From a virus (Duplodnaviria > Heunggongvirae > Uroviricota > Caudoviricetes), in IMG/VR virus record IMGVR_UViG_3300043399_001190: a stretch of DNA of 64,000 bases; one strand, written 5' to 3'. The position numbers were made by a program, and so were the translations under genes. The notes below the pieces were generated by a model, which saw only the letters and a list, made by a program, of their open reading frames with translations, ran no database searches and was not told the origin of the DNA. Of this stretch, positions 271 to 42,596 are shown piece by piece (the first letter of the stretch is position 1; every line of letters begins with the position of its first letter).

Positions 271-346
271 GCGCCTGTGGCCAAGCGGTTAAGGCAGTGA
301 ACTCATAATTCATTGATCGGGGGTTCGAATCCCTCCGGGCGCACCA
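271..346 (+). tRNA. tRNA-Met (anticodon CAU; could alternatively be lysidine-modified tRNA-Ile2), CCA encoded
   Basis: cloverleaf read by eye: acceptor GCGCCTG/CGGGCGC, D-arm GCC..GGC, anticodon stem GTGAA/TTCAT with loop CTCATAA, T-arm GGGGG-TTCGAAT-CCCTC, discriminator A + CCA. Confidence 0.8.
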
Positions 347-4511: not shown

Positions 4512-4823
4512 ATGGCAAATATTAGAGGAATTAAATTGGTAACGGGTGAGGAAGTTATTTCCGAGGTAATCATCCAGCCAGATGGTAGATTCTTACTCAA
4601 GAATCCTGTGCAGCTAAGGATGGTTCCACCACAGATTGCAGGTAGCCAGCCATCTATGGGCTTTGTTCCTTTCCCAGCCTTCGGCAGTCAAGGTGAAAAT
4701 ATATTTGTAGAACCACTACATATAGTGTACAATTACACTCCTGACGAACAAATCGTTTCAAATTACAACCAAATGTTCGGTGCAGGCATCATCACCCCAT
4801 CTAAACAAATTATAACTGGATAA
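4512..4823 (+). CDS. hypothetical protein upstream of DNA polymerase
   Basis: track ORF 4494..4823; start moved to MANIRG (GGAGA RBS); stop overlaps pol start (TAATG). Confidence 0.45.
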   Translation: MANIRGIKLVTGEEVISEVIIQPDGRFLLKNPVQLRMVPPQIAGSQPSMGFVPFPAFGSQGENIFVEPLHIVYNYTPDEQIVSNYNQMFGAGIITPSKQIITG

Positions 4824-7354: not shown

Positions 7355-7365
7355 AAAGGAATAAT

Positions 7366-8418
7366 ATGAGCATACTTGAGAAAATCAAAAAAAATAGCAG
7401 CATCAAAGATTCAGCCATTCTGGCTAAATCTAAATTTTTCACTGATAAAGATATGATTCCCACTGCCGTGCCGGCGGTAAACATTGCTTTGTCTGGACGC
7501 CTAGATGGGGGTCTAACTCCAGGTCTAACAATGTGGGCGGGACCTTCAAAGCATTTCAAAACCGCATTTTCGCTTTTGATGGCTAAATCCTATCTAGACA
7601 AATATCCAGAATCCGCACTTTTGTTTTATGATTCTGAGTTTGGTACACCACAAGCGTATTTCGATACGTTTGGCATTGATGCAAATCGTGTGTTACATAC
7701 TCCTATCATGGATATTGAACAACTAAAATTTGACATTATGAATCAATTAACAAATCTAGAACGGGGTGATCGTCTAATCATTGTTATTGATTCTATTGGT
7801 AACTTGGCTTCGAAAAAGGAAGTTGAAGATGCTTTGGATCAAAAATCTGTGGCAGATATGAGTCGAGCAAAACAAGTCAAGAGTTTGTTCCGAATGGTTA
7901 CACCACACTTGACAATGAAAGACATTCCAATGGTTGTTGTCAATCATACGTATAAAGAAATTGGAATGTTCCCGAAAGATATCGTCGGTGGTGGAACCGG
8001 TTCTTATTATTCCGCCGATAACATTTTTATTCTTGGTCGTCAGCAAGAAAAAGATGGTACAGAAATTACTGGCTACAATTTTATAATCAATGTAGAAAAG
8101 TCACGCTATGTCAAAGAAAAATCTAAAATACCTGTTAATGTATCTTTTGGTGGTGGCATTAACAAGTGGTCTGGTCTACTTGATATTGCACTTGAATCTG
8201 GGCATGTTATTAAACCTAGCAATGGTTGGTATTCAAAAGTAAACATGGAAACAGGTGAAGTTGAAGATAAAAAATATAGAGAAAAAGATACAAATACTTC
8301 CGAATTTTGGTTGCCTATCTTGAAGCAAAAATCCTTCAGAGATTTTGTTGAAACGAAATATCGTGTTACCAATTCCGAAATTATTCAAGAACAGGATGAA
8401 GAAGATGAAACCGTTTAA
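7366..8418 (+). CDS. uvsX: UvsX RecA-like recombinase
   Basis: near-colinear similarity to T4 UvsX recalled from memory (NIALSG..AGPSK.FK, FYDSEFG, IDSLGNLASKKE, VNHTY, NVEKSR.VKEKSK); start set at MSILEK rather than track 7309. Confidence 0.93.
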   Translation: MSILEKIKKNSSIKDSAILAKSKFFTDKDMIPTAVPAVNIALSGRLDGGLTPGLTMWAGPSKHFKTAFSLLMAKSYLDKYPESALLFYDSEFGTPQAYFDTFGIDANRVLHTPIMDIEQLKFDIMNQLTNLERGDRLIIVIDSIGNLASKKEVEDALDQKSVADMSRAKQVKSLFRMVTPHLTMKDIPMVVVNHTYKEIGMFPKDIVGGGTGSYYSADNIFILGRQQEKDGTEITGYNFIINVEKSRYVKEKSKIPVNVSFGGGINKWSGLLDIALESGHVIKPSNGWYSKVNMETGEVEDKKYREKDTNTSEFWLPILKQKSFRDFVETKYRVTNSEIIQEQDEEDETV

Positions 8419-8737
8419 GGAAGGTGTTGACTTTGTTTACGAAATTCCAAAGACAGAAGATACAACAGTTGGAATTAAAATTATCAGAGGAGAATATTCT
8501 GATACCATTTACCAATATGGTAAAGTGAAATTTGAAGAAGAGTCTGATGGTGCCATTTATCTGAGATTCGTTTATAATGTCTTAGAATCTCCTTTAGATA
8601 AGGAGGAACTAGAAAAGAGTTCGCAGTTCAAAGACTATATCGGCGATATTCTAGTTAATATTATCTCAGCAAATTTGGACAAAGGATTGATTGATGAGGC
8701 TGGAACAGACTATTCTGAAGAACCTGATTCACAATGA
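8396..8737 (+). CDS. hypothetical protein in the position of T4 gene 40
   Basis: track ORF 8345..8737; internal ATG at 8396/8405 overlaps uvsX stop; overlaps 41 start by 46 nt. Confidence 0.4.
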   Translation: MKKMKPFKEGVDFVYEIPKTEDTTVGIKIIRGEYSDTIYQYGKVKFEEESDGAIYLRFVYNVLESPLDKEELEKSSQFKDYIGDILVNIISANLDKGLIDEAGTDYSEEPDSQ

Positions 8738-10094
8738 GGAATTTTTGAGGAAAGTTTTACCTTTCCTCAAAGAGGATTATTTCAATGATCGAACAGAAAA
8801 AGTTATTTTTAAAGAAATAACTGAGTTCACAAATCAATATAATAATTCACCAACAACGGAAGCTTTGGGTTTATCTCTGAAAGATAAGCGCAATCTAACA
8901 AGCGATGAGGTTGAAAAATGTGATGCCGTTCTAAAAGATTTGGCAATTGCACCGGTCGAAAAAACACAAATTCAATGGTTGATTGATAAGACGGAAAAAT
9001 TTTGCCAAGAAAAGGCAATTTACAATGCAGTTCTGGGTTCAATTTCTATTCTAGACGGTAAAGATAAAAGTCAAGACAAAGGTTCTATTCCTAAAATTTT
9101 GTCAGATGCACTTGCTGTCAGTTTCGATTCGTCGGTCGGTCATGATTATTTGGAAGATTATGATGAGCGTTATGATTTTTATCATCGAAAAGAGGAAAGA
9201 ATTCCTTTTGATTTGGAATACTTCAATAAGATAACCAAGGGTGGATTGCCTGCGAAGACTTTGAATATTGCTCTTGCTGGTACTGGTGTTGGTAAATCTC
9301 TTTTCATGTGTCATGTTGCCGCAGGTTGTATGACACAAGGTAAAAATGTATTGTATATTACACTTGAAATGGCTGAAGAGAAAATTGCCGAGAGGATTGA
9401 TGCGAACCTACTGAATGTTTCCGTCGATGATCTTATGCAATTGACTAAAGATATGTATGATAAAAAAGTCAAGCGTGTCAAAGAAATGACGACAGGTAAA
9501 CTTATTATCAAAGAGTATCCAACAGCCTCGGCTTCGTCCATACATTTTAGGACACTTTTAAATGAACTCAACCTCAAAAGGAACTTTGTTCCGGACATTA
9601 TTTTCATTGACTATCTTAATATTTGTTGTAGTGCAAGAATCAAAGCCGGAGCAAACGTTAATTCTTACACCTACGTTAAAGCCATCGCCGAAGAATTGCG
9701 AGGTCTTGCGGTTGAATTCGGAGTACCAATTGTTTCTGCGACACAAACAACAAGAAGTGGTTATACTTCTTCAGACCCAGGATTGGAAGACACAAGTGAA
9801 TCTTTTGGTTTGCCAGCAACCGCAGATTTGATGTTTGCACTCATTTCTTCCGAAGAAATGGAAGCACTCAATCAAATTATGGTCAAGCAGTTGAAGAATC
9901 GTTATTCTGATCCAACACAATACAAAAGATTCGTCTTGGGTATTGACAGGTCGAAAATGAGACTATATGATGTTGAACAGGATGCACAATATGGTATTGC
10001 GGATTCTGGTAAACAAGTGCAGGACAAACCTTTAAACACATTTGGAATGAGGGAAATGAAGCCGAAAAATAAATTTGCAGGAATTAAAGTATAA
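8691..10094 (+). CDS. 41: replicative DNA helicase (T4 gp41, DnaB family)
   Basis: strong similarity to T4 gp41 recalled from memory (VSFDSSVGHDYLEDYDERY, Walker A AGTGVGKS, LYITLEMAEE, KNFVPDIIFIDYL). Confidence 0.93.
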   Translation: MMRLEQTILKNLIHNEEFLRKVLPFLKEDYFNDRTEKVIFKEITEFTNQYNNSPTTEALGLSLKDKRNLTSDEVEKCDAVLKDLAIAPVEKTQIQWLIDKTEKFCQEKAIYNAVLGSISILDGKDKSQDKGSIPKILSDALAVSFDSSVGHDYLEDYDERYDFYHRKEERIPFDLEYFNKITKGGLPAKTLNIALAGTGVGKSLFMCHVAAGCMTQGKNVLYITLEMAEEKIAERIDANLLNVSVDDLMQLTKDMYDKKVKRVKEMTTGKLIIKEYPTASASSIHFRTLLNELNLKRNFVPDIIFIDYLNICCSARIKAGANVNSYTYVKAIAEELRGLAVEFGVPIVSATQTTRSGYTSSDPGLEDTSESFGLPATADLMFALISSEEMEALNQIMVKQLKNRYSDPTQYKRFVLGIDRSKMRLYDVEQDAQYGIADSGKQVQDKPLNTFGMREMKPKNKFAGIKV

Positions 10095-10115
10095 ATACTT
10101 TAATTTAGGGGTATT

Positions 10116-10865
10116 ATGGCTGCACAACAAGGTTTTCAATATGAAGTGAACGCCGCCAATGTTTTGAAACCTTTAGGATTGGTACCAAAAACATTTGTGC
10201 CAGCCGGTGCGGGCCACGATCAACCCGATTTAATGCTGGAATATAAAAAAATTAAGGCAGGTTGTGAATTAAAAATTACAGCAGCATCAGCCGGTTCTTT
10301 GGTTTTAAAATATGATTCGAAGGACAAAAAGAACCCCTGGAAATTTGGTGACATAAAGAAAGATGATGATGAAAAAATATTCATAAAGGAATTGGCAGAA
10401 GAAGTTGGCCTTTTTGATATTATCAAAAAGGAATGGAAAGAAATACCCTTTAAAAGAGATAAAGACCTTTTATGGGAATCGACAGCAGGAAAACTAACTA
10501 ATCAACAAAGATACGAAAGAGATAGGGACACATTTCCTGATATACGCGGTGAAATAAAAGCAGAAAAAATTGAACAATATTACAACAAAAAAGACACATA
10601 TTATGTAAATGTGGGTACACACGGCTTTTACATGATGGGAAAAAAGAATCCATTAAAATTGAAGAATGTACCTACATTCGCATCAGCAGCAAAAGCCACA
10701 TATCGAGCGAGAGTTCAATATAAAGGAGGAGGTAATTATCAATTTACTTTTGAGATGCAATTTTCTATTCCTGCTGCCAAAAAATCAAAATTTAATATTG
10801 CACCAGTTGACGGTAAAACCGTCAACATAAAAAAAGATCAATTAAATTTAACCTGTTTCATTTAA
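10116..10865 (+). CDS. hypothetical protein; possible PD-(D/E)xK nuclease-like motif (QPDLMLEYKK)
   Basis: ORF track; weak motif PD..EYK only. Confidence 0.4.
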   Translation: MAAQQGFQYEVNAANVLKPLGLVPKTFVPAGAGHDQPDLMLEYKKIKAGCELKITAASAGSLVLKYDSKDKKNPWKFGDIKKDDDEKIFIKELAEEVGLFDIIKKEWKEIPFKRDKDLLWESTAGKLTNQQRYERDRDTFPDIRGEIKAEKIEQYYNKKDTYYVNVGTHGFYMMGKKNPLKLKNVPTFASAAKATYRARVQYKGGGNYQFTFEMQFSIPAAKKSKFNIAPVDGKTVNIKKDQLNLTCFI

Positions 10866-10866
10866 T

Positions 10867-11148
10867 ATGCCATTAGACCTAAACATAGAAAAAATTCTCA
10901 AAGAATTTGATGAAGACGACGACTTCGGTTTTTCTGCCGTTTCTGAAGTTGAGTACAATAAAGTTATTAATGAATCTGCCGAAACGGCAGAAGCATACAA
11001 AGCTAAATTGGCTGAAGTTGAAAAACTTATCATACCCTTCTTAACCAAACTTTTGAAGACAGCCGACAAAGAATATATATACTGGCCAAATAGAAAACCA
11101 GCAATCGAAAAACAAATTGAAAAGATATTGAAACTGACTCGGAGTTAA
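10867..11148 (+). CDS. small acidic hypothetical protein
   Basis: ORF track, tight spacing. Confidence 0.4.
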   Translation: MPLDLNIEKILKEFDEDDDFGFSAVSEVEYNKVINESAETAEAYKAKLAEVEKLIIPFLTKLLKTADKEYIYWPNRKPAIEKQIEKILKLTRS

Positions 11149-11149: not shown

Positions 11150-11881
11150 ATGAATCCTTTGGTGACGGTCATAACGCCAACTACGGCAAGTGACCAATTG
11201 CATGATGTATTGAAATCAATAGATAAACAAACATATCAAAACATTCAACACTTGGTTGTTGTAGATGGTTTTGACAAGTATGGCGTAAAAGCCACACAAA
11301 TAATGGAAGGCGCAAAACGATCCACTGCTTTTGCACTTCCTCACAATACCGGTTATGACCAATACAACGGTCATAGAATATATGGTGCAATGTCATATAT
11401 TGCAGAAGGTGAGTTCCTCTGCTTTCTGGATCAAGACAACTGGTACGAAGATACACACATAGAGTCTCTGGTTGAAGTAATTCGCCAAGGAAATCAATGG
11501 GCATATTCTCTAAGAAAAATTGTTTCACAAGAAGGAACATTCATTTGTAATGATGATTGTGAATCTCTTGGTAAATGGAAATCTATTCTAAATGACAATT
11601 TTGTGGACGTTAATTGTTTCATGATTCCTAAAATGGCAGCAATTGCATTTTCACCATACTGGTATCGTAGAGCTAGACACCCACAAGAACAACCAGAAGT
11701 TGATAGAATTTTATCGGCATTTATGATGCAAAATTTTAAAAAATTTGACACAAATGGTCAATATAGTGTAAACTATCGTGTAGCAAGTAGAGCAGATTCT
11801 GTACAAGATGTATTCTTCATTAAAGGTAATGAAGTGATGAAACAAAATATGAATGGAGAATTTCCGTGGCGAAAGACTTAA
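11150..11881 (+). CDS. glycosyltransferase family 2-like
   Basis: N-term VTVITPTTASDQLHDVLKSIDKQTY...VVVDGFD and DQDN (DxD) motifs typical of GT2. Confidence 0.55.
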   Translation: MNPLVTVITPTTASDQLHDVLKSIDKQTYQNIQHLVVVDGFDKYGVKATQIMEGAKRSTAFALPHNTGYDQYNGHRIYGAMSYIAEGEFLCFLDQDNWYEDTHIESLVEVIRQGNQWAYSLRKIVSQEGTFICNDDCESLGKWKSILNDNFVDVNCFMIPKMAAIAFSPYWYRRARHPQEQPEVDRILSAFMMQNFKKFDTNGQYSVNYRVASRADSVQDVFFIKGNEVMKQNMNGEFPWRKT

Positions 11882-12744
11882 TTATAGGTGCATATACAAA
11901 TTATGAATTCAATTTATTGAAACCTTGGATTTATTCCATCAAACAAACCGACTTCGATGGTGATATTGTTTTAATTGCCATTGATCCAGACGAAAACACC
12001 GTAAAACAAATAGAAGATGCTGGTGTAATAGTAGTTAAGGCTAGAAACGAACAAAAAATGAGAATTCATATGTTGCGTTTCTTGTACATATACAATTATC
12101 TAAAACACACAGATTATCGTTTCGTTATCACGACAGATGTTCGTGATGTTATCTTTCAGAACAATCCGACAAAATATCTTTACACAACATTTGGTAGCAA
12201 ATCAAAAGGTATCATTGCACAATCTGAGGCAATTAAAATTAAAGATGAAGCCTGGAATCGTGATAATATCATTAAAAATTTTGGAGAATATTTTTACAAT
12301 GATGTAAAGGACAATGAAGTATATAATGTTGGTCTGCTTGCTGGAACTGCCGAATATGTTAAAGATTTATGTTTTGCTTTGTTTCAAATGTCAAGCAATC
12401 GTCCAGATTGGGTCGCCGACCAGGCAGCATACAATATGTTATTGAGTTATAAACCCTGGTCCGATATTGCAATAAAACTAAAGCTTGAAGATGGTTGGGC
12501 TTTGAATGCACACGTAACAAACAAGCCAGATCAAATGCAAGAATTTGGTCCTTATTTGTTGGAAGAAAGACCGTATATGAAAGATGGTGTGGTTTTTAAT
12601 GCACAAGGAAAACCATTTACGATTGTACACCAGTATGATAGGGTTCCAGAGTGGACTATTTATTATATGGAAAAATTTCAATTTTCTATCAAATCGGACA
12701 CCAATACCGGCAGTTCACCTAAATACTTCATCTACAATACATAA
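11866..12744 (+). CDS. hypothetical protein of the glycan-modification cluster
   Basis: ORF track; overlaps neighbours. Confidence 0.4.
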   Translation: MAKDLIIGAYTNYEFNLLKPWIYSIKQTDFDGDIVLIAIDPDENTVKQIEDAGVIVVKARNEQKMRIHMLRFLYIYNYLKHTDYRFVITTDVRDVIFQNNPTKYLYTTFGSKSKGIIAQSEAIKIKDEAWNRDNIIKNFGEYFYNDVKDNEVYNVGLLAGTAEYVKDLCFALFQMSSNRPDWVADQAAYNMLLSYKPWSDIAIKLKLEDGWALNAHVTNKPDQMQEFGPYLLEERPYMKDGVVFNAQGKPFTIVHQYDRVPEWTIYYMEKFQFSIKSDTNTGSSPKYFIYNT

Positions 12745-12762
12745 TTTTATAAATATGAGGCT

Positions 12763-13599
12763 TTGAATATGAGCAAAATTTCTATCGTAACCGCTTTCTA
12801 TGACATTGGCCGAAGTGATTGGTCGATGGATGTACACAAAAATGGTGGTCCACTTCCACACTATTTACAAAGATCGACAGAAAAATATATCGAGCATTTC
12901 AAACGAATGTGCGAGATTGATACTGAAATCATTGTTTACACATCCTCTGATCTAGCATCAAAACTCGGTGAGATTTCACCGAATGTTAAAGTTGTCGAAT
13001 ATGACTACTTTAATATACATAAAGAACTCCGTGACAAGATTGAAGAAATACAAACATCACCTGAGTTCATAAAAAGAATAAATCCATATCAAGTAAGAAA
13101 TCCCGAATACTGGTCAAAAGACTATGTTGGTGTAACATCACTAAAGGCTTTCTATGTGAGTGATGCTTTTGAGCGTGGGTTAATCACCAATGAATGGGCT
13201 GCCTGGGTTGACTTTGGTTATTGTCGTGATGCAGAACATATTCCAAAAACCAAAAAATGGGAATATGATTTCACACCAGGTAAAATGCACTTCTTTAACT
13301 ATCGTGATCCGGACATTAATAAGAAACTTGAACAAATCCAGCTTGCGGTATTAAACAATATCGTCTATATCATCGGCGGTGTTTTTGTTGGTGAAAAAAC
13401 ACAATGGAAGATGCTTGAAGATAGTATGAGCAAATCAATGGAATTTTTAATGTACAACAAGCTCGTTGATGATGACCAAGGTCTTCTATTGAGTTCATAT
13501 TTTATGAATCCAGAAATGTATGAATTGCATAAAATGCCATTAGTTGCTCCAATTGAAGATGTTAGATCCATAATTAAGAAGTTTAATAATCATGAATAA
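12763..13599 (+). CDS. putative LPS/polysaccharide biosynthesis protein (HtrL/YibB-like N-terminus IVTAFYDIGR)
   Basis: motif recall only; TATAAATA-like sequence tttataaata at 12745-12755 just upstream. Confidence 0.35.
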   Translation: MNMSKISIVTAFYDIGRSDWSMDVHKNGGPLPHYLQRSTEKYIEHFKRMCEIDTEIIVYTSSDLASKLGEISPNVKVVEYDYFNIHKELRDKIEEIQTSPEFIKRINPYQVRNPEYWSKDYVGVTSLKAFYVSDAFERGLITNEWAAWVDFGYCRDAEHIPKTKKWEYDFTPGKMHFFNYRDPDINKKLEQIQLAVLNNIVYIIGGVFVGEKTQWKMLEDSMSKSMEFLMYNKLVDDDQGLLLSSYFMNPEMYELHKMPLVAPIEDVRSIIKKFNNHE

Positions 13600-14977
13600 A
13601 TTAGTAATTTTTGACCTTGATGGTGTATTAATTGATTCTAGAGAAATACACTATGATGCATTAAATGATGCTCTGAGAAAAGTGGGTGAACAATATGTCA
13701 TTTCTAGAGAAGAACATTTAAGCTTATACGATGGTTTAAATACGACTAGAAAACTTAAGATGTTGACCGAAAAAAAAGGTTTACCTGTTTCTGAATATGA
13801 TAAGATTTGGTCTGACAAGCAAGAAGCAACATTCACTATTGTTAGAGGTTTCAATAAAGAATATTGGTTACAAACCATGTTCAGAAAAATAAAAGCAAGA
13901 GGATATAAAATTGCTGTTGCTTCGAATTCAATTCGTGAGACAGTAAAATTGTCTCTTATAAGTATTGGGCTAATTGAAGAAGTTGATTATTTTGTTAGCA
14001 ATGAGGATGTAAGTAGAGCAAAGCCATATCCCGAAATGTATTGGAAATGCATGACAGCTTTGAATGCTTTACCCAAAAATACTATCATTGTCGAAGATAG
14101 TCACATCGGCCGACAAGGTGCTTTAGATTCTGGCGCACATTTATTACCAGTTGAAAACGCACAAGAAGTTAACAGTGAAAATATGATGCAAAGGATTTAT
14201 GACCTTATGAATACAATTGAAGGAACAAGTAAAAAATCTCTACCTTGGAGAGATAACAAACTAAACGTTTTGATTCCAATGGCTGGCGCAGGCTCACGTT
14301 TTTCTACTGCCGGTTATACTTTTCCAAAACCACTTATTGAAGTTCGCGGTAAACCAATGATTCAAGTTGTTGTCGAAAACTTGAATATTGAAGCTAACTA
14401 CATTTTCTTAGTACAAAAAGAACACTATGAAAAATATAACTTGAAGTATCTTCTGAATCTAATTGCTCCAAATTGTAAGATTGTGCAAGTAGATGGTCTA
14501 ACAGAAGGTGCAGCTTGTACGACTTTATTGGCAAAAGAATATATTGATAATGATGCGCCTCTAGTCATGGCAAATTCGGATCAATACGTTGATTGGAATT
14601 CTAATGAATGCATGTACGCTTTCTCAGCAGATTCTATTGATGGTGGCATTCTAACATTTGAAGCAACGCATCCGAAATGGTCTTATGCAAAACTTGATGA
14701 GAATGGATTTGTTTCTGAAGTTGCAGAGAAGAAAGTTATTTCCAATAATGCAACAGTTGGCATTTATTACTGGCGTCACGGTTCAGACTATGTTAAATAT
14801 GCTGAACAGATGATTAAAAAAGATATTCGCGTTAACAATGAATTTTATGTTTGTCCCGTTTTCAATGAAGCGATTGGTGACGGTAAAAAAATTCGTGTTA
14901 AAAATGTTGAAGCTATGTGGGGTATTGGAACCCCAGAAGATTTAAATTATTTTTTGAGCAATCACAAGGAAGATTAA
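13592..14977 (+). CDS. bifunctional HAD-family phosphatase/phosphomutase (N) + sugar-phosphate nucleotidyltransferase (C)
   Basis: HAD motif I IFDLDGVLIDS at N-term; nucleotidyltransferase signature LIPMAGAGSRF in C-half. Confidence 0.55.
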   Translation: MNKLVIFDLDGVLIDSREIHYDALNDALRKVGEQYVISREEHLSLYDGLNTTRKLKMLTEKKGLPVSEYDKIWSDKQEATFTIVRGFNKEYWLQTMFRKIKARGYKIAVASNSIRETVKLSLISIGLIEEVDYFVSNEDVSRAKPYPEMYWKCMTALNALPKNTIIVEDSHIGRQGALDSGAHLLPVENAQEVNSENMMQRIYDLMNTIEGTSKKSLPWRDNKLNVLIPMAGAGSRFSTAGYTFPKPLIEVRGKPMIQVVVENLNIEANYIFLVQKEHYEKYNLKYLLNLIAPNCKIVQVDGLTEGAACTTLLAKEYIDNDAPLVMANSDQYVDWNSNECMYAFSADSIDGGILTFEATHPKWSYAKLDENGFVSEVAEKKVISNNATVGIYYWRHGSDYVKYAEQMIKKDIRVNNEFYVCPVFNEAIGDGKKIRVKNVEAMWGIGTPEDLNYFLSNHKED

Positions 14978-14978
14978 A

Positions 14979-15593
14979 ATGAAATATTTTTTTGATGTTG
15001 GAGCACACTGGGGACAAGACTCTCTACATATTGCAAAAGATGACCCAGATACTACAGTTATTGCTTTTGAGCCAACGCCGGAGTTAGCTTCTAGATTGAG
15101 GTGGATTGCCAAAGAAGGGAAATTTGAAAGCCGCTATAAAGTATATCAGCAAGCAATTTCAGATTTTGATGGTGAATCAGATTTTCATCTTGTTGTCGGT
15201 GATACCGGTTCGGCCTCTCTTAACGAATTCAATGACAATCTACATCAAACTTGGCCAGGTAGAACAGACTTTGTTGTTAGAGGCTCAATCAAAGTAAATG
15301 TATACAGACTCGAAACGTGGCTGCCTTTGTTTGCACCGGAAGTAACAGAAATTGAACATTTACATATTGATGCTCAAGGCTCCGATTTAGCAGTTTTAAG
15401 AGGTCTAGGTTCCAAACTCTCGATGGTGAAATCTGGTGTCGTTGAAGTGCCACAAGCTGCTGCTTTACGACTGTATAAGGGTCAACACACGAAAGAAGAA
15501 ACTCTCCAATTTTTGGAAGAGAATGGTTTCGAAGTTACAAATGTGACTTCACAGGTTAATGAGGATAATATTTTCTTTCAGAGAAAAAAATGA
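14979..15593 (+). CDS. FkbM-family SAM-dependent methyltransferase-like
   Basis: N-term FFDVGAHWGQDS resembles FkbM motif (IDVGAN.G); 204 aa. Confidence 0.5.
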   Translation: MKYFFDVGAHWGQDSLHIAKDDPDTTVIAFEPTPELASRLRWIAKEGKFESRYKVYQQAISDFDGESDFHLVVGDTGSASLNEFNDNLHQTWPGRTDFVVRGSIKVNVYRLETWLPLFAPEVTEIEHLHIDAQGSDLAVLRGLGSKLSMVKSGVVEVPQAAALRLYKGQHTKEETLQFLEENGFEVTNVTSQVNEDNIFFQRKK

Positions 15594-16303
15594 AAGTTGC
15601 ATTGTTATTAACAGGTCATATGCGGTGTTGGAATCAAGTATTTCCAAATACCAAAAACCATATCATGGACAAATATAATCCAGATGTTTTCATCGAGACA
15701 TGGGATTCTGAAGCATACTGGGATCCACATTCTTCAAAGGGTATAACCGAAGGTGGTCCCAATTTGAATGTTGATGCGATTCAACGTACTTACAAACCAG
15801 TATACATGAATGTGGAAAAATACGAAGAATTTGAAGAAAATTTTTCTCAACGAGCTAAGGAATTTACTAATTTCTATCATGTACCGAAAAACCAAATTTC
15901 CATGTGGTTTAAAGTAGGTCGTGGTATGCTCGCTGTTGAAGAGCATATGATGTTGACAGGCAAAACATATGATGTTATAATTCGTATGCGTCCAGATTTG
16001 TACTTCAATGAACCTTTACCAGATTTTGATCCGAACAAATTTTATACCTTGGGATTTAGAAATCATATGGGTCAAGGAACCTCCGATATGATTCAAGTTG
16101 GAAACTTCTTTACCATGAGCTTATTCTGTAAAGTTCTTTATCATTTACCACATCTTTATAAGGAAACCGGTCTTTTGTGTCCGCATGTTATTTCAGAACA
16201 CTTCATTAAAAGATTGGGATTACCCTGGCAAGAATTTATGGTTAACAAAACAATAATGCACACACCTCTAGGCGAATATAAACACAAGAGTCTGTACCAA
16301 TGA
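15590..16303 (+). CDS. hypothetical protein, paralogue of 16751..17458
   Basis: MKVALLLTGHMR / KYNPDVFIETWD aligns with MRLALCLSGQPR / KYTVDVFFHTWV. Confidence 0.45.
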   Translation: MKVALLLTGHMRCWNQVFPNTKNHIMDKYNPDVFIETWDSEAYWDPHSSKGITEGGPNLNVDAIQRTYKPVYMNVEKYEEFEENFSQRAKEFTNFYHVPKNQISMWFKVGRGMLAVEEHMMLTGKTYDVIIRMRPDLYFNEPLPDFDPNKFYTLGFRNHMGQGTSDMIQVGNFFTMSLFCKVLYHLPHLYKETGLLCPHVISEHFIKRLGLPWQEFMVNKTIMHTPLGEYKHKSLYQ

Positions 16304-16794
16304 TACTAATTGCACACAGAGGTCTTTTCAGTGGGCCTGATATCGAAAAAGAGAATACACCAAAACAAATCGAACTTGCATTGGAAAAAAATTACGATTG
16401 TGAAGTTGATGTTTGGTACGTTAAAAATGAATGGTGGCTAGGTCATGACAAACCACAATATAAAGTTGATTGGAACTTTATTGGAAAGGAAGGTTTGTGG
16501 CTGCACTGTAAGAATCTAGATGCTTTATATGAACTGACTTACAGCCCATTCAAGTACACTTATTTCTGGCATCAGGAAGACGATTTTACTTTAACTTCGA
16601 ATCATTACATCTGGACTTATCCTGGAAAATCTCTAACCAGAAATTCAATTTCTGTGCAACCAGAAAGAACGGAAGAAATGTGGACATGGACCAAAAGTTG
16701 TTCACTAGGTATAGCTGGTGTTTGTACAAAATATGTTGAAAGATTTGTGAATGAGATTAGCACTTTGTCTATCGGGACAACCGAGAAGCTATAA
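16300..16794 (+). CDS. glycerophosphodiester phosphodiesterase (GDPD)-like domain protein, short
   Basis: IAHRG...ENT...E.D.W..K...LGHD matches GDPD signature. Confidence 0.5.
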   Translation: MILIAHRGLFSGPDIEKENTPKQIELALEKNYDCEVDVWYVKNEWWLGHDKPQYKVDWNFIGKEGLWLHCKNLDALYELTYSPFKYTYFWHQEDDFTLTSNHYIWTYPGKSLTRNSISVQPERTEEMWTWTKSCSLGIAGVCTKYVERFVNEISTLSIGTTEKL

Positions 16795-17458
16795 AAAAGC
16801 TTTTGAATTTATAAGTAGAAATTTACTTGAAAAATATACTGTTGACGTTTTCTTTCATACGTGGGTGAACGTACCGGAGAATAGTTATATTTTTGACGAA
16901 CTGCAACAACTTTATAGACCTGTTATTGCTTCTTATGACTATTCTTTACCGTCAAATGTAAATTCACACATGTTGGTTCCAAATGGCTCACATCCAGCCA
17001 ATTTTTGCACATCAATGTTTTACTCTATTAATGTTGCAAATGAATATAGGGTCAAGCATGAAGTTTTTGGTGCATTTCGTTATGATTTTGTTATACGAAG
17101 TAGATTTGATTTTGCGCTAAACAAAGTGATTGATTTTGGTTCTCTGGAAACAAATAAACTCTATGTTCCAAAAGATGTTGAAGGACCGGCACTTTTAAAT
17201 GACCAGTTTGCCATAGCTGATTCTGATACGATGAATGTCTATGCGTCAACGTTCTTATATCTGCAAAAATTGTATAATTCTGGAGTTCCACTTTGTGGGC
17301 ATGAAATGTTGCAGGAACAACTGACAAGAAATTCTACGCCAGTTGAACGTATCGACCTTGACCATCCTTTCGTTGATGGTGATTTTAATAGAGGAAGACA
17401 CTCTCTGATACGTGAAGATATGTCAAAATGGGTCGATATTAAAATTTGGGGCTACTAA
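16751..17458 (+). CDS. hypothetical protein, paralogue of 15590..16303
   Basis: see paralogue; overlaps upstream gene by 44 nt. Confidence 0.45.
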   Translation: MRLALCLSGQPRSYKKAFEFISRNLLEKYTVDVFFHTWVNVPENSYIFDELQQLYRPVIASYDYSLPSNVNSHMLVPNGSHPANFCTSMFYSINVANEYRVKHEVFGAFRYDFVIRSRFDFALNKVIDFGSLETNKLYVPKDVEGPALLNDQFAIADSDTMNVYASTFLYLQKLYNSGVPLCGHEMLQEQLTRNSTPVERIDLDHPFVDGDFNRGRHSLIREDMSKWVDIKIWGY

Positions 17459-17494: not shown

Positions 17495-18688
17495 ATGAAA
17501 CAATTTTTGCAGTATTTGCAGGAAGAACTGGACCCGGAAGAGGGTGCCAGTAGGCAAATAAAACACCTAACACATATCGAAGATCGTATTTTGCAAACCG
17601 GAGACAAAGGTGCAAAACACGCAATTTCGTCATTGGAAACTGCGGCTGAACACATCAGTCAAGGTAAAAAGTCATCGCAACTGACAACAAAATATGACGG
17701 TTCACCAGCAATCGTTTACGGTCATCACCCAGAAAACGGTAAGTTTTTTGTTGCTTCCAAGTCAGCTTTCAACAAAACACCAAAAATCAACTATACGCCT
17801 GCCGATATAGAAAAAAACCATGGCCATGCTCCTGGCTTGGTTGAGAAGTTGAAAGCAGCACTGAAACATTTACCGAAAGTTGCACCAGAAAAAGGTGTTT
17901 ACCAGGGTGATATGATGTTCTCGGATGTAGACAAGAAACACTCAAAAGATGCCGTTTCTTTCAGACCAAATCCCTCTGGTATAACTTACACTGCACACGG
18001 TCAACATGCAACAAAAGCTAAAAAGGCCAAAATTGGTGTAGTAACTCATTTATCATATGAAGGCAAAAATTCTGCTAGTTTAAATGCATCGCACGAAGTT
18101 GACCATGAAAATTTCGGGCAACATTCTGATGTATTCTCGGTTGACCCAAGAATGGACACTTCTAAAGTACATTTCGGTCCAAAAGACAGAGCAGAATTCA
18201 AAAAACACATTGCCGCAGCTAGATCAGTTCACGATACGCACGGTGACGACATGTATGCAGGAACAAAAGCACATCAAGGTATAGGTGGTCATTTAGAGAC
18301 TTACATCAATCACACTGTTAGGAGTGATGAAGAACCTAATCATGAAAATTTTAAAAAGTGGTTGGAAAATAAGAAAAATAAAGAAATTGAAAAATTGAAG
18401 GTTGAAAAAAATAAAAAGTCCAAACAGCAAGAGTTATCAGCGGAATTAGATAAGATTGAAAGAAATAAAAAGCACTATAATAATGTTTTCAAAATGCATG
18501 GTCATTTACAAAAAGCAAAAAATGTGCTGATTAATGTTCTAAATCAACATCAAGAATTTCAACATGAACACGCTGGTGAACCAGCAAATCCTGAAGGATA
18601 CGTTTTCCATCACGGAAAAGAATCGGATAAATTTGTAAACAGAAGCGAATTCTCAAAAAGAAATTTTGCCGGAATAAGAAACATATGA
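17495..18688 (+). CDS. putative covalent nucleotidyltransferase (KxDG motif, ligase-like) with T4 CTS-like N-terminus
   Basis: N-term MKQFLQYLQE; TTKYDGSPAIVYG (KxDG), later PEGYVFHHGK; assignment by motif only. Confidence 0.45.
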   Translation: MKQFLQYLQEELDPEEGASRQIKHLTHIEDRILQTGDKGAKHAISSLETAAEHISQGKKSSQLTTKYDGSPAIVYGHHPENGKFFVASKSAFNKTPKINYTPADIEKNHGHAPGLVEKLKAALKHLPKVAPEKGVYQGDMMFSDVDKKHSKDAVSFRPNPSGITYTAHGQHATKAKKAKIGVVTHLSYEGKNSASLNASHEVDHENFGQHSDVFSVDPRMDTSKVHFGPKDRAEFKKHIAAARSVHDTHGDDMYAGTKAHQGIGGHLETYINHTVRSDEEPNHENFKKWLENKKNKEIEKLKVEKNKKSKQQELSAELDKIERNKKHYNNVFKMHGHLQKAKNVLINVLNQHQEFQHEHAGEPANPEGYVFHHGKESDKFVNRSEFSKRNFAGIRNI

Positions 18689-20586
18689 AAAAATTTCTAG
18701 AAAAAGTGGAAGACGATTTGCAAACCAAAAGCCCAGTCGTAATGGCTTTTGGTAGAATGAATCCGCCCACAGTTGGGCATGAGAAACTTGTAAACAGAGT
18801 TAAAGAAATAGCTAAAGACTATAATGCTCCACACCATGTTATAATTTCACATTCTGTTGATGCAAACAAAAATCCACTTGATGCTAAAGCAAAACTGAAA
18901 CACGCCCAGAGATTTTTTCCTGGCACAAATTTATCAACTTCCAGTAAAGAACTTCCAACTTTCTTGCAACACGCTGCAAAGTTAAATGCAGCAGGACATG
19001 ACCATTTAATTATGGTTGCAGGCTCGGATAGAATTCCAGAATATGAAAAGAAGTTGCATGATTATAATGGACCAAAAGATAAAAATCCAAAAGCACTTTT
19101 CAATTTCAAAAAAATTGAGTTGAAATCTGCGGGGCATCGTGATCCTGACTCTGAAGGTGTTGAAGGTATGTCTGCCTCAAAAATGAGGGAACATGCAAAA
19201 AATAATGATTTTCATAGCTTCAAGATGGGTGTACCTGAGCATGTGCCCGAGAAACACGCCAGAGAACTTTTCAGAGATGTTAGAAAAGGTATGGGTATAC
19301 ATGAAGATTCTAGTCATGGTTTGTTCAAAGCACTCTTCATTTGTGGTGGTCCCGGTTCCGGTAAAGATATCATCATACGTGAAGCAATTGCTGAAAGAAA
19401 CGCGGTCGAACTGAATTCAACTCTTGCAATTAATATTCTCAACGACAAACATAAGTTACATGAACAGTCTAAAGATTTCAGAAGAGAAGCTATTCGCAAA
19501 AGAATGCCGTTGATTGTAAATGGCACAACGAATGAACAATTCAATATTATTGAAATTAAAAATGAGTTGGAAGAACTCGGTTACGAAACAATGATGATTT
19601 TCGTAAACACGACAAACGAAGCTTCGAAAAAAAGAAACAATGGACATGAAAGAGTTATGTCCGAATCTGTTCGTCAAGAAAGATGGGATAAGACTCAACT
19701 TGTAGCTGAAAAAATGAATCAAATTTTTACAAAATATCTGGAATTTGATAACTCTTTGGACTTGAATGAAGCTACAATTTTCGAAATGTCGGAGAAAGAA
19801 GAAGATATAGCAATCATTTATGAAATGTCCAACTGGTTTTTCGACACTCAAGTAAACAACGAAATTGCAGAAACTTGGTTAGAAAAAAATAGAAAAAAGG
19901 ATATAAACCAAGTATTCGAATCCTTTATTAAAAATCCTTTGAAAGGTAGAAAAAATGTTTCAGAAATTAAAGCAAATCGCAAGACTATTTTTGCCGAAAG
20001 TGGATGCAAATGCAAAACATCCTTTGGATATTCAGAAGTATCAGGTAGAGGAAAACAAAAGCTCACAGACAACATCTGCCCAAGTTGCGAGCTTACTAGA
20101 AAAGCCGGTAGAGAAGACGATGTTAGAGACGGAGACACCAAATCAAACATTAGTTACACATTCAGAACCTACCACGAAGGAACAACCCCAACCATCCAAG
20201 TCAACCCAGAGCCCAAAGAAACGCGCTTCCAGCAAGACAACGACAAGCAAAAAAACAGGAAACAAAAAGCCGCACCAAGCCAAAGCGGCAAAGTAATGAA
20301 CACTGCTGGTGTTAGCCCAGAATATGATACACGCGCTCAAGGTTCTGTTTACCCAATGTCTGGTCTTGGAAATGTTACATATAGAGAACAGAAAGAGAAT
20401 AAATATACCAGTACCGCAGAGGTAACACGCAAATCGTTTGTAAAATTCAGAAAAGAATCTATTGATTCTCCAAGTGTCGAAATGGGAGTTACTGGCGGAG
20501 AATATGGTCCTTCAAACAAAGAACCGTTGGAAACTCCAGGCGATAAAGTATTGAATCAAAATTCAAATAAAAAGAAGAAAAAATGA
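18685..20586 (+). CDS. HxGH nucleotidyltransferase (NMNAT/cytidylyltransferase-like) fused to P-loop domain (GGPGSGK) and long K/T-rich low-complexity tail; CTS-like N-terminus
   Basis: MKKFLEKVED N-term; FGRMNPPTVGHEKL; LFICGGPGSGKDIII; tail rich in K,T,S,N. Confidence 0.5.
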   Translation: MKKFLEKVEDDLQTKSPVVMAFGRMNPPTVGHEKLVNRVKEIAKDYNAPHHVIISHSVDANKNPLDAKAKLKHAQRFFPGTNLSTSSKELPTFLQHAAKLNAAGHDHLIMVAGSDRIPEYEKKLHDYNGPKDKNPKALFNFKKIELKSAGHRDPDSEGVEGMSASKMREHAKNNDFHSFKMGVPEHVPEKHARELFRDVRKGMGIHEDSSHGLFKALFICGGPGSGKDIIIREAIAERNAVELNSTLAINILNDKHKLHEQSKDFRREAIRKRMPLIVNGTTNEQFNIIEIKNELEELGYETMMIFVNTTNEASKKRNNGHERVMSESVRQERWDKTQLVAEKMNQIFTKYLEFDNSLDLNEATIFEMSEKEEDIAIIYEMSNWFFDTQVNNEIAETWLEKNRKKDINQVFESFIKNPLKGRKNVSEIKANRKTIFAESGCKCKTSFGYSEVSGRGKQKLTDNICPSCELTRKAGREDDVRDGDTKSNISYTFRTYHEGTTPTIQVNPEPKETRFQQDNDKQKNRKQKAAPSQSGKVMNTAGVSPEYDTRAQGSVYPMSGLGNVTYREQKENKYTSTAEVTRKSFVKFRKESIDSPSVEMGVTGGEYGPSNKEPLETPGDKVLNQNSNKKKKK

Positions 20587-31663: not shown

Positions 31664-31909
31664 ATGAAAAAAGTTCTTAGATTTACTGCATCATGGTGTG
31701 GACCATGTAAAGCCTTAAGTAGTGTTCTAAATGAGGTTGAAACGGATCTTCCGTTTGAAGTTATTGATATTGATGTTCACCCAGAACTTGCAATTGAATT
31801 TGGTGTTCGTTCTGTGCCAACTCTTGTAATGATGGATGAAACTATTGAAATGAAAAGAACCACTGGAATGAAAACCAAAGAACAACTAACGGAGTGGTTG
31901 AATGCTTAA
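31664..31909 (+). CDS. thioredoxin
   Basis: WCGPCK active site. Confidence 0.85.
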   Translation: MKKVLRFTASWCGPCKALSSVLNEVETDLPFEVIDIDVHPELAIEFGVRSVPTLVMMDETIEMKRTTGMKTKEQLTEWLNA

Positions 31910-42080: not shown

Positions 42081-42265
42081 ACTACGTAGAATCATTCTTA
42101 ACCATATCAATATACCAACTGAACCTATTCTCATTTATGTTAGGTATGGTATATACCCTATGTAATGTGCGCTGGGGTAACCAGTCAAAACTCTGGATGC
42201 ATGTAGTGATTTACACTATGTTCGTAGCATTGTATTATTTTGCGAAGAGTAATGGTTACGTATAA
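42077..42265 (+). CDS. small hydrophobic protein
   Basis: ORF track; last plus-strand gene before GC-rich cassette. Confidence 0.4.
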   Translation: MNYVESFLTISIYQLNLFSFMLGMVYTLCNVRWGNQSKLWMHVVIYTMFVALYYFAKSNGYV

Positions 42266-42464: not shown

Positions 42465-42486
42465 CTAAATCACTGCCAGCCCCAAC

Positions 42487-42585: not shown

Positions 42586-42596
42586 TTGTTTACTCC

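Follow-up and report, generated by a model that had tools for sequence, protein, structure and literature searches.

Comparable glycan gene clusters are already known in marine phages. Cyanomyoviruses (P-SSM2, S-SM2, S-SSM7, S-CAM9, S-PRM1 and S-SCSM2R) and pelagimyoviruses, which have the same type of phage backbone as the virus described here, carry 'LPS / cell-wall modification' clusters that likewise lie in a variable (hyperplastic) region and bring glycosyltransferases and methyltransferases together with sugar-nucleotide enzymes, and which the literature treats, by conjecture, as modifiers of the host surface (PMC3037559; PMC7029224; PMC12801897). Bacterial LOS outer-core loci (Acinetobacter OC; E. 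coli waa with htrL/yibB) offer a second likeness: they too rely on soluble glycosyltransferases, HtrL/YibB included, have no Wzx/Wzy or initiating transferase, and hold variable genes between conserved flanks. The beta-gt/hmC system of T4 occupies the same general uvsX-40-41 region; its beta-gt, a GT-B-fold enzyme that requires hmC, is encoded 5′ of uvsX beside gene 42.

Here, we analyse a glycan cluster within a 64-kb window (the whole stretch of DNA studied, 64,000 nucleotides of a ~179-kb genome), which covers the replication and nucleotide-metabolism module of a T4-like aquatic myovirus. Cyanomyoviruses and HTVC008M are equally remote from this phage, whose gp43 is at most 50% identical to cyanomyovirus and pelagimyovirus homologues. 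Judged from the gene content, the cluster is best explained as a self-contained operon for soluble glycan assembly in this lineage.

An eight-gene cluster downstream of gp41

The cluster lies 3′ of gp41, within the gp41-gp61 gap of the replication module, without structural genes adjoining it. An earlier note on this DNA had counted seven genes; there are eight, all co-directional, with ends that overlap or nearly touch (Table 1). The cluster is real, and both the observation and the interpretation placed on it held up in part: domain and fold matches agree with a glycan-building set that includes a GT2 protein, a HAD and nucleotidyltransferase (NT) fusion, an FkbM methyltransferase, a GDPD-like protein and a paralogous pair.

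Table 1 Features of the locus in 5′ to 3′ order; the eight-gene cluster runs from the GT2 gene to DUF7796 paralogue b
Feature	Coordinates	Strand	Remarks
TATAAATA late-promoter-type motif	10090..10097	+	Exact match; overlaps gp41 stop, 19 nt 5′ of ORF 10116
249-aa basic protein, first gene after gp41	10116..10865	+	phrog_26930, 2.5e-17
93-aa acidic protein	10867..11148	+	No family match; travels with GT2
GT2-family (GT-A) glycosyltransferase, 243 aa	11150..11881	+	PF00535
292-aa protein, unnamed family	11866..12744	+	phrog_1579 'glycosyltransferase', 4e-7
TATAAATA late-promoter-type motif	12748..12755	+	In 24-nt gap between 292-aa gene and HtrL; 14 nt before ATG 12769
HtrL/YibB-family protein, 276 aa from ATG	12769..13599	+	PF09612
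HAD-IA + sugar-1-phosphate nucleotidyltransferase fusion (HAD-NT)	13592..14977	+	HAD_2 and NTP_transferase-fold matches
FkbM-family SAM-dependent methyltransferase, 204 aa	14979..15593	+	PF05050, TIGR01444
DUF7796-like paralogue a, 237 aa	15590..16303	+	phrog_13607, 2e-15
Mini-GDPD, 164 aa, truncated glycerophosphodiesterase fold	16300..16794	+	Fold and catalytic motifs
DUF7796 paralogue b, 235 aa	16751..17458	+	GT-A fold; 5′ end overlaps mini-GDPD gene tail by 44 nt

Up to five of the products are of glycosyltransferase type. The GT2 protein matches PF00535 over profile positions 2-164 of 168 (34.9 bits, cut-off 23.3; E value 1.9e-8) and TuaG/AglG/PglI weakly; after its fourth strand it carries a DQD ('CFLDQDNW') of DxD form, which from its position we infer to be the functional metal/nucleotide-sugar motif. 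The 292-aa protein has no match in Pfam or PDB, and its family of 2,740 representative clusters, with an invariant TTDVRDV motif, includes members fused to HtrL_YibB, Fringe/GT31 or GT2 domains; it is probably a glycosyltransferase-like domain. For the HtrL/YibB protein we took the start used by gene callers, ATG 12769, where the ORF list began at TTG 12763. It exceeds the threshold of PF09612 (1.9e-44; 152.7 bits, cut-off 24.1) but misses those of the NCBIfam YibB equivalogs (223.6 bits against 342 and 177.1 against 264.9), and is thus a family member rather than a YibB orthologue. Both remaining ORFs qualify as DUF7796 (PF25072)/GT-A proteins, DUF7796 having a GT-A glycosyltransferase fold in predicted structures. 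Paralogue a reaches only 15.5 bits against the Pfam model (cut-off 27) and aligns to the family of paralogue b with 100% probability in hhalign (E value 1e-99), so that a GT-A-type fold is predicted for it from its paralogue.

All eight proteins, GT2 among them, lack a TM helix: seven show no TM-like hydrophobicity in any 19-residue window, and in HtrL an internal segment scores 1.79. Pfam families for a flippase, polymerase, ABC exporter or initiating phosphoglycosyltransferase do not occur in the cluster. The gene set does not fit a Wzx/Wzy- or ABC-dependent O-antigen or capsule locus, which would have these membrane-protein families.

Two genes separate the cluster from gp41. The 249-aa protein, which has a homologue in P-SSM2 (30% identity), was seen in just 13 of the 80 loci anchored on GDPD and probably stands outside the glycan chemistry; the 93-aa acidic protein, for which profile searches returned no family, lies directly 5′ of GT2 in most relatives. 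The two exact copies of TATAAATA each head one half of the operon. The first is kept in 9 of 11 distinct relatives, and at the second (T/A)ATAAATA recurs with the same spacing in 13 of 23 distinct relatives' junctions, a further 2 having ATAAATA only ~50 nt upstream; the S-CAM9 glycan cluster shares the motif, again spaced by 14 nt. ATAAATA is rarer than expected in the window, and five of its eight copies precede a gene start by 14-31 nt (p ~1e-6). The late-promoter-like element noted earlier at 12748 is therefore borne out by depletion, placement and conservation, and TATAAATA is a plausible T4-type late-type promoter. As cyanomyoviruses have such motifs before 'middle' genes as well (PMC2984593), it argues for mid-to-late rather than strictly late expression. 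A sigma-70-like site (11/12 matches) lies at 9943-9971.

A glycan cassette separates gp41 from DUF6267 in every one of the 33 relatives whose flanking sequence sufficed, so that to call the cluster 'inserted' is misleading. The 5′ half of these cassettes is shared, their 3′ half comes in no fewer than four versions, and the interval is best explained as a hypervariable cassette site in this T4-like aquatic myovirus lineage.

Sugar supply, tailoring and the mini-GDPD

The HAD-NT fusion, which shares 66-68% identity with S-CAM9, S-PRM1 and B3 proteins, joins a HAD-IA (beta-phosphoglucomutase-like) domain (residues ~1-205) to an NT domain (residues ~222-458). The former matches HAD_2 (91.6 bits, cut-off 23.8) with motifs I-IV (DxD, S/T, K, E-D) in place as DLDGV, ASNS, AKP and VEDS, but misses the cut-offs of TIGR02009 (85.5 against 153) and bPGM (74.2 against 189) and also draws phosphatase or pyrophosphatase scores; its sequence fits mutase and phosphatase alike. 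The NT fold is indicated by matches to PDB 4evw (1.4e-15) and rmlA_long (2.9e-14) and by a PF00483 match precomputed on an identical protein, whereas GlmU, mannose-1-P guanylyltransferase, HddC-like and RmlA chains score alike, at ~20-24 bits, singling out no sugar or nucleotide. Other loci replace the HAD part by a separate PMM-type phosphomannomutase and a small cupin, or have the NT fused to an RpiB/LacAB isomerase, which argues that the HAD domain would serve sugar-1-phosphate supply. The fusion is predicted to run from sugar-6-phosphate through sugar-1-phosphate to NDP-sugar, in keeping with the proposal that the cluster makes its own activated sugar.

The methyltransferase noted earlier passes both thresholds, PF05050 (1e-15; 58.7 bits, cut-off 22.7) and TIGR01444 (3.6e-19; 69.6, cut-off 37.7). 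FkbM occurs in 32 of 80 loci and its slot is a variable tailoring position, occupied in one relative (L042) by another SAM-methyltransferase-like ORF and a third DUF7796 paralogue.

The mini-GDPD has a GDPD TIM-barrel fold in its predicted structure, with the His/Arg, Glu/Asn, Glu-x-Asp and His catalytic positions, HR(6-7), EN(18-19), ExD(35-37) and H(49), invariant across the family. It differs from canonical GDPDs (GlpQ/UgpQ, PF03009) in length (164 aa compared to ~220-330 aa), in being cytoplasmic, in its pairing with a nucleotidyltransferase and in the lack of a detectable sequence match: Pfam, PF03009 included, gave nothing even at E ≤ 10, and PDB sequences gave nothing with a single sequence or a 46-sequence profile. 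The mini-GDPD is tightly linked genetically to the nucleotidyltransferase. The two genes occur together in 72 of the 80 viral loci; in SAR11, SAR86 and Bacteroidia the mini-GDPD adjoins a related NT gene, in either order, in ~52 of 54 evaluable loci. These cellular pairs stand inside surface-polysaccharide islands; the 128 ORFs around them include 11 with matches to GDP-mannose dehydratase/epimerase families, 8 to GT2, 6 to GT1, 3 to WavE, 3 to DUF7796 and 2 to GT11, and a minimal SAR11 island has, beside the mini-GDPD and HAD-NT, just a double glycosyltransferase and one further protein. GDPDs are hydrolases that release glycerol-3-phosphate. The glycerol-phosphate decoration suggested earlier, which was read from the GDPD fold only, fits this poorly, and the evidence points to the link with the nucleotidyltransferase instead.

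Candidate targets of the glycan

We consider a host envelope glycolipid of LOS/LPS-core type the most likely target, ahead of virion proteins, with a probability of roughly 45%. The HAD domain would convert host hexose-6-phosphate to the 1-phosphate and the NT domain this to NDP-hexose; the glycosyltransferases would add sugars stepwise to an acceptor already at the cytoplasmic face, FkbM would cap the glycan by O-methylating a sugar, and the mini-GDPD may form or cleave a phosphodiester on the substrate or product of the NT. Soluble transferases assemble glycans of this type with no need of Wzx/Wzy, and host machinery exports them, so that the infected-cell surface, and later its debris, would carry the altered glycan. 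If so, superinfection could be blocked or progeny spared adsorption loss to debris, and the alternative 3′ cassette halves would correspond to different glycan 'serotypes'. This reading draws on the surface-polysaccharide setting of the cellular HAD-NT/mini-GDPD pairs, on HtrL/YibB being known from no loci but those of LPS core and LOS (PMC4172580), on the LOS-type families GT25 and GT11 in related cyanophage clusters, on the resemblance of a soluble set without flippase, polymerase or initiating transferase to LOS outer-core loci, and on cassettes that vary between conserved flanks in the 33 relatives; it also agrees with the conjectured host-surface role of the cyanomyovirus and pelagimyovirus clusters. 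Two observations count against it and fit late cytoplasmic decoration of capsid, tail or fibre proteins with a methylated oligosaccharide from phage NDP-sugar: late-type motifs head both halves, which suits virion glycosylation better than host takeover, and all-soluble transferases with a methyltransferase also match the virion glycosylation of PBCV-1 and mycobacteriophages (PMC11600133). Virion decoration, in which cassette variants would be virion glycotypes, is consistent with both the enzyme set and the promoter motifs, and is our tentative second choice. It sits less easily with a cluster in the replication module rather than beside structural genes, with HtrL, WavE and GT25-type families that point to LOS-type acceptors, with the sigma-70-like site upstream and with late-type motifs that also precede cyanomyovirus middle genes (PMC2984593). 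To our knowledge, LPS modification has not been demonstrated by experiment in any marine T4-like phage, and we know of no report of a glycosylated virion in one.

A soluble or lipid product in place of a surface glycan is improbable. Here the phosphodiesterase would free glycerol-3-phosphate, a transferase glycosylate it and the HAD domain remove the phosphate, yielding with the NT a glycosyl-glycerol-type solute or glycolipid with phospholipid head groups as a possible source of recycled phosphorus. The retained GDPD motifs and glycerol-3-phosphate-releasing activity of GDPDs, the phosphatase scores of the HAD domain and the minimal SAR11 island would suit such a route, but five transferase-like genes with a methyltransferase and serotype-like variation fit a polymeric surface glycan better, the exchange of HAD for a PMM-type mutase and cupin points to sugar-1-phosphate supply rather than product dephosphorylation, and the genes around the cellular pairs are of O-antigen and capsule type. 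Least favoured of all is DNA, which the earlier note had listed among the targets and for which it had proposed a search for hydroxymethylase or thymidylate-synthase paralogues. In the 64-kb window this search found only ThyX (28841-29515); tblastn with T4 beta-gt and gp42 gave nothing better than E 0.5, and the scanned ORFs include no ThyA-type hydroxymethylase, TET/JBP or 2OG oxygenase, or C5-methyltransferase. The missing hydroxymethylase, TET-like oxygenase and beta-gt homologue make a DNA target unlikely. T4-type glucosylation was rejected for the window, which has neither a beta/alpha-gt homologue nor gp42 and where the cluster is not between gene 42 and uvsX, as was a 5mYOX/ThyS-linked hypermodification cluster, no dioxygenase or ThyA-type hydroxymethylase neighbouring it among the window's ORFs. 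That the transferases glycosylate a hydroxymethylated base, like T4 alpha/beta-gt or 5mYOX/ThyS-linked phage enzymes, is thus very improbable, even though the cluster stands among replication genes and arabinosyl-hmC systems are accompanied by HAD- and NT-type sugar-supply genes. Phage GT-A-fold enzymes akin to LPS/teichoic-acid glycosyltransferases can also glycosylate 5hmC, with glycans of two or three sugars (bioRxiv 10.1101/2023.12.21.572611); against this, the promoter motifs are of the late and not the early type, five transferases and a methyltransferase far exceed known DNA systems and the HAD-NT/mini-GDPD pair belongs to cellular surface-glycan islands.

Relation to known systems

The synteny with the T4 beta-gt neighbourhood proposed earlier is loose and holds for the general uvsX-40-41 region and not for the position within it: T4 beta-gt lies on the other side of uvsX, and this cluster on the other side of gp41, in a window without its homologue or gp42. 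The likeness to chlorovirus PBCV-1 A064R and to the glycosyltransferase and O-methyltransferase cassettes of mycobacteriophages is one of enzyme kinds. Unlike LOS outer-core loci, the cluster is phage-encoded, includes a mini-GDPD and brings its own supply of NDP-sugar. The cyanomyovirus and pelagimyovirus clusters also contain mini-GDPD and DUF7796 homologues, with roles that are conjectured (PMC3037559; PMC7029224; PMC12801897), but they differ in site, lying near hli/psbA/phoH and not, like the present one, in the replication module between gp41 and DUF6267, and in content, with an epimerase, GT11 and GT25 instead of the GT2, 292-aa family, HtrL and FkbM proteins found here.

Gene content and genomic setting of the cassette

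The window covers a T4-like myovirus replication and nucleotide-metabolism module, in which gp43 and gp41 are at most 50% and 65% identical, respectively, to those of cyanomyoviruses and about equally distant from those of Pelagibacter phage HTVC008M (47% and 60%). When near-identical DNA was sought among GenBank phages, the glycan cluster had no match and 540 bp of gp41 (74%) were all that matched; independent Logan assemblies, as well as a 179-kb JGI contig, contain the same gene string. Assigning a host through the other genes of the window was not tenable, as these include no photosynthesis genes and cyanophages and a pelagiphage are equidistant.

The interval 11150-17458, which the earlier note described as a seven-gene cluster, is spanned exactly by co-directional ORFs on the + strand, but there are eight of them, with gene ends that overlap or nearly abut (the extremes being an overlap of 44 nt and a gap of 24 nt). 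The proposed paralogy of the genes at 15590 and 16751 holds, with a BLASTP identity of 21% (E = 5e-12) and an hhalign probability of 100%. A common GT-A origin of the GT2, 292-aa, HtrL and DUF7796 families was rejected, as hhalign probabilities were below 8% for all but the DUF7796 pair. Searching PDB sequences with the 292-aa, HtrL and mini-GDPD (a 164-aa truncated GDPD-fold protein) sequences gave no useful match.

Features of the window and their positions
Feature	Position	Strand	Remark
tRNA-Met (CAT), single	271-346	+	left end of window
DNA polymerase gp43	4823-7354
UvsX	7309-8418
Helicase gp41	8691-10094
TATAAATA	10090	+	overlaps gp41 stop codon; 19 nt before ORF 10116
GT2	11150-11881	+	PF00535, 34.9 bits vs cut-off 23.3
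292-aa protein	11866-12744	+	weak PHROG 'glycosyltransferase' match, 4e-7
TATAAATA	12748	+	14 nt before HtrL ATG
HtrL/YibB	12769-13599	+	PF09612, 1.9e-44
HAD-IA + sugar-1-phosphate nucleotidyltransferase fusion (HAD-NT)	13592-14977	+
FkbM methyltransferase	14979-15593	+
DUF7796-like protein (DUF7796a)	15590-16303	+
'GDPD-like' protein (mini-GDPD)	16300-16794	+
DUF7796 (DUF7796b)	16751-17458	+	PF25072, 41.1 bits vs 27
DUF6267 protein	17495-18688
633-aa 'cytidyltransferase'	18685-20586
Primase gp61	27834-28856
ThyX	28841-29515
NrdA	29870-31660
NrdB	31902-32885
RNase H	35400-36248

The 292-aa protein has no match in Pfam or the PDB. Its family is large and unnamed (582 clusters at 90% identity; 2,740 representatives at 50%), with multi-domain members that are fused with an HtrL_YibB, a Fringe/GT31 or a GT2 domain (P0443, P0399 and P0485, respectively). 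The first of these fusions mirrors the order of the 292-aa and HtrL genes in the cluster. A stretch invariant in the family, TTDVRDV, appears to resemble a DxD-type motif, and the protein may be a glycosyltransferase-type or glycan-modifying domain.

In T4, beta-gt lies upstream of uvsX, the order along transcription being 42, beta-gt, segA, uvsX, 40, 41, dmd, 61.x, 61. The cluster instead lies downstream of gp41, within a gp41-gp61 gap of 17.7 kb (about 1.6 kb in T4), and none of its proteins resembles T4 beta-gt or gp42. The synteny with the T4 beta-gt neighbourhood that had been suggested is thus correct for the broad neighbourhood but not for the actual position, which is on the opposite side. 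The cluster is flanked by gp41 with two small ORFs on one side and a conserved pair encoding the DUF6267 and 633-aa proteins on the other; cyanomyoviruses and HTVC008M likewise keep this pair downstream of gp41, and in P-SSM2 and S-SSM7 mazG and other genes separate gp41 from the genes for the DUF6267 protein and the 'cytidyltransferase'. The 633-aa protein, so labelled elsewhere, combines an HxGH nucleotidyltransferase-like N terminus with a P-loop (GGPGSGK), and our guess is a NadR-like NMN adenylyltransferase/kinase. As its gene is conserved in cyanophages and HTVC008M regardless of a nearby glycan cluster, and the protein has no PDB sequence match, we left it out of the cluster and rejected it as a CDP-glycerol source for the GDPD.

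Nor is the cluster a one-off, as its description as 'inserted' had implied. In all 33 loci that were anchored on DUF6267 (75-88% identity) and had enough upstream sequence, gp41 and DUF6267 enclose a glycan cassette that starts with GT2 and the 292-aa gene, preceded in most relatives by a small acidic 93-aa ORF (b). The 3' half takes at least four forms: that of the window; one with other genes on either side of a DUF7796 gene and without HAD-NT or mini-GDPD; a short one with HtrL and other genes; and one in which HtrL and other genes precede HAD-NT and mini-GDPD. In about 30 of 80 IMG/VR loci anchored on mini-GDPD, the full string b-GT2-292-HtrL-HADNT-FkbM-DUF7796a-miniGDPD-DUF7796b-DUF6267 is found in unchanged order, and in the window-type cassette the FkbM slot can carry another SAM-methyltransferase-like ORF and a third DUF7796 paralogue instead.

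Elsewhere in the window, a G+C-rich segment (42000-45100; 0.46-0.54 vs roughly 0.37 in the remainder) contains a 371-aa ORF (43944-45059) without a Pfam or PHROG match, to which two uncultured Caudoviricetes and an Acinetobacter phage give weak tblastn matches (25-36% identity across roughly half of the ORF); recent acquisition from a foreign source is possible. A batch scan of 46 further ORFs, in which matches are per batch and not per ORF, gave single matches to a SegE-like GIY-YIG homing endonuclease, a MazE-like antitoxin, WYL_2, a MazG-like PRA-PH, DUF7207 and DUF6433.

The nucleotidyltransferase/mini-GDPD pair

Mini-GDPD lacks a signal peptide, its catalytic HR being residues 6-7, and is a cytoplasmic protein tied to the nucleotidyltransferase (NT). 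HAD-NT accompanies it in 72 of the 80 viral loci, and all eight exceptions are too short upstream of mini-GDPD to show it. The cellular set comprises 57 loci from bacterial genomes and metagenome-assembled genomes (MAGs), mostly of Pelagibacteraceae (including the complete genomes NZ_CP172842 and NZ_CP159823 and strain HTCC9565) but also of SAR86, SAR116, Bacteroidia and others; part of its MAG and SAG contigs are possibly phage DNA, the complete chromosomes not. Here, the full fusion lies within 150 nt of mini-GDPD in 34 loci and within 3 kb in four more, an NT-only homologue is present in 13 (in 12 adjoining mini-GDPD or no more than 3 kb from it, in one at 3.7 kb), and two loci with full flanks have no NT homologue. 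Mini-GDPD precedes HAD-NT in SAR11 and follows it in SAR86 and phages, and because adjacency is kept in both orders and across phyla, there is good evidence for a functional link between the two.

The neighbours of the cellular pair are, by their sequence assignments, typical of surface-polysaccharide islands: the 128 ORFs around 13 cellular loci include 11 of GDP-mannose 4,6-dehydratase/epimerase families, eight GT2, six GT1, three WavE, three DUF7796, two GT11 and several methyltransferases. A minimal island occurs in Ca. Pelagibacter nBUS_30 (NZ_CP172842; positions 5829-10513 of the compared locus L130), between recJ and an integrase-family gene and away from any large LPS island, with just four genes that encode a 704-aa double glycosyltransferase (GT4 + GT1), mini-GDPD, HAD-NT and a 239-aa protein. 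The last was compared with DUF7796 and is unrelated.

All four catalytic motifs are visible in the HAD domain, whose best models are of the beta-phosphoglucomutase/YqaB subfamily, with scores under the equivalog cut-offs and with phosphatase and pyrophosphatase models scoring too. Two other viral loci show what may stand in its place. In one (L077, 8292-11289), a separate NT-homologue gene is followed by a small cupin, a PMM-type HAD phosphomannomutase (PF03332, 5.6e-19), mini-GDPD and DUF6071; in the other (L070, 6603-10985), the order is WavE-like, HAD, a 218-aa ORF without a Pfam match, NT fused with an RpiB/LacAB sugar-phosphate isomerase, a 109-aa ORF, mini-GDPD and a cell-wall hydrolase. 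Isomerase, mutase and nucleotidyltransferase make up the classical route from ketose phosphate to NDP-sugar, and from these versions we infer that the HAD domain of the cluster would be a phosphomutase supplying the NT. The sugar and nucleotide are not assignable because GlmU, mannose-1-P guanylyltransferase, HddC-like and RmlA chains score alike against the NT, but GDP-mannose-type chemistry is suggested by the dehydratase and GT11 genes near the core pair in cells and, in S-CAM9 and S-8S53, by the homologue having a 'nucleotide-sugar epimerase' and GT11 as neighbours.

For mini-GDPD itself, a 46-sequence profile found no chain among PDB sequences. In the giant virus Homavirus (BFVD A0A3G5A5B5; Foldseek E = 7e-14) it is fused with an FkbM domain, so that, with the fusion in the metagenomic protein P0443, two 'Rosetta-stone' proteins join components of the cluster. 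Candidate roles are to release a phosphorylated precursor, or to make or trim a phosphodiester on an NDP-sugar or glycan; the glycerol-phosphate decoration first suggested would have the GDPD fold as its single support. A bolder proposal, which we consider doubtful, is that mini-GDPD is a new type of enzyme acting on the substrate or product of the NT, for example a sugar-phosphate (phosphoglycosyl) transferase or an NDP-sugar-processing enzyme, that the pair forms a two-gene module for phosphodiester-containing surface glycans, and that the locus is a serotype-like cassette site fixing the glycotype of the virion or infected cell. Such a module would be common to SAR11, SAR86, Bacteroidia, T4-like marine phages and giant viruses.

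Expression timing and target of the glycan

Exact TATAAATA occurs twice in the window (4.4 copies expected by chance), and the two copies head the two halves of the cluster. The shorter motif ATAAATA is depleted, with eight copies compared to 9 to 71 for heptamers of the same composition (all except one at least 17), and five of the eight lie 14-31 nt before a gene start (10091, 12749, 23719 and 27151 on the + strand, 61133 on the - strand; background 2.9%, binomial p about 1e-6), a placement that the best same-composition heptamer reaches in no more than 3 of 9 copies. These five sites probably map T4-type late promoters within the replication-gene region. TATAAATA is kept at the gp41 junction in 9 of 11 distinct sequences, and (T/A)ATAAATA is found at equal spacing at the 292/HtrL junction in 13 of 23, with two more having ATAAATA only about 50 nt upstream; part of this conservation may reflect common descent. 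In the glycan cluster of S-CAM9, at an unrelated genomic site, AATAAATA precedes the first gene by 14 nt, and NATAAATA is a described cyanomyovirus late promoter (PMC2984593).

Cyanomyovirus 'middle' genes are thought to have both early and late promoters (PMC2984593), and a sigma-70-like site with 11 of 12 matches is present at 9943-9971. Transcription from 12748 at T4-like spacing would begin past the GAGG Shine-Dalgarno sequence. The element at 12748 had been taken as a hint of late expression: the late-type motif is well supported by its enrichment before gene starts and its retention in relatives, but strictly late timing is not, and expression of the cluster is probably mid-to-late. A further sigma-70 consensus at 15953-15981 (+), with perfect TTGACA, 17 nt, TATAAT and an upstream TG, lies within the DUF7796a gene, ahead of the gene for mini-GDPD; we rejected it as an internal early promoter, as just 3 of about 30 relatives retain it and conserved YDxxIR codons overlap it, and it is probably due to chance.

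A convincing transmembrane segment is absent from all eight proteins, and there is no flippase, polymerase or initiating transferase among them, so that assembly of the glycan must rely on a pre-existing acceptor, located in the cytoplasm or on the inner side of the membrane. We favour the host envelope as its target, with a LOS/LPS-core-type glycan, at a probability of roughly 45%, because the HtrL family is LOS-specific (PMC4172580), WavE-, GT25- and GT11-type families occur in related loci, the core pair is at home in cellular surface-polysaccharide islands and the cluster resembles outer-core loci. Modification of virion proteins is a realistic possibility that the late-type promoters, the giant-virus mini-GDPD-FkbM fusion and an all-soluble set of glycosyltransferases plus methyltransferase, paralleling PBCV-1 and mycobacteriophages (PMC11600133), speak for; a soluble or lipid product is improbable. 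DNA would be a very improbable target. A check for hydroxymethylase or thymidylate-synthase paralogues had been proposed: within the 64-kb window there is no gp42/ThyA-type enzyme, only ThyX, and no TET/JBP or 2OG oxygenase, C5-methyltransferase or beta-gt, neighbour genes of the kind that define known DNA-sugar pathways (bioRxiv 10.1101/2023.12.21.572611).

Relation to known glycan loci

T4-like marine phages that infect cyanobacteria and SAR11 rank with Earth's most abundant viruses, and since 2005 their 'LPS' clusters have been called anything from host-surface modifiers to 'stuffer DNA'; to our knowledge, nobody has tested their function. If the glycan decorates the virion, it would be the first case that we know of in marine T4-like phages, and if it decorates the host envelope, our favoured target, it would bear on superinfection exclusion and receptor dynamics in the ocean's dominant microbes. 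The late-type motifs heading the cluster make expression timing measurable, the fixed flanks and alternative 3' halves make glycotype diversity surveyable in metagenomes, and the presence of the pair in cultured phages (S-CAM9, S-PRM1) and cultured SAR11 makes biochemistry and glycan analysis feasible.

In the literature searched, we found no description of the NT/mini-GDPD module spread over SAR11, SAR86, phages and a giant virus, of a GT-A assignment of DUF7796, of the fusion partners of the 292-aa family or of a serotype-like cassette site with late-type promoters. Large cyanomyoviruses and pelagimyoviruses are repeatedly reported to carry 'LPS' or 'cell-wall modification' clusters in hyperplastic regions, with the function of these clusters openly stated as unknown (PMC3037559; PMC7029224; PMC12801897), and homologues of the core pair and DUF7796, annotated as hypothetical, are present in the published phages S-CAM9, S-PRM1, S-8S53 and B3. 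The cluster therefore belongs to an already known class of phage glycan clusters, and the result, useful and testable, would not surprise a specialist. The cultured pelagimyovirus HTVC008M, in which no homologues of the cluster proteins are detectable over 1-50000 and 97300-147284, differs in having its own glycan cluster after nrdB (locus L148, 27718-35013), with a glycosyltransferase, a methyltransferase, a Nol-like carbamoyltransferase and a UDP-glucose dehydrogenase. With its fixed flanks, conserved 5' half and variable 3' half, the phage cassette resembles bacterial O-antigen and outer-core loci.
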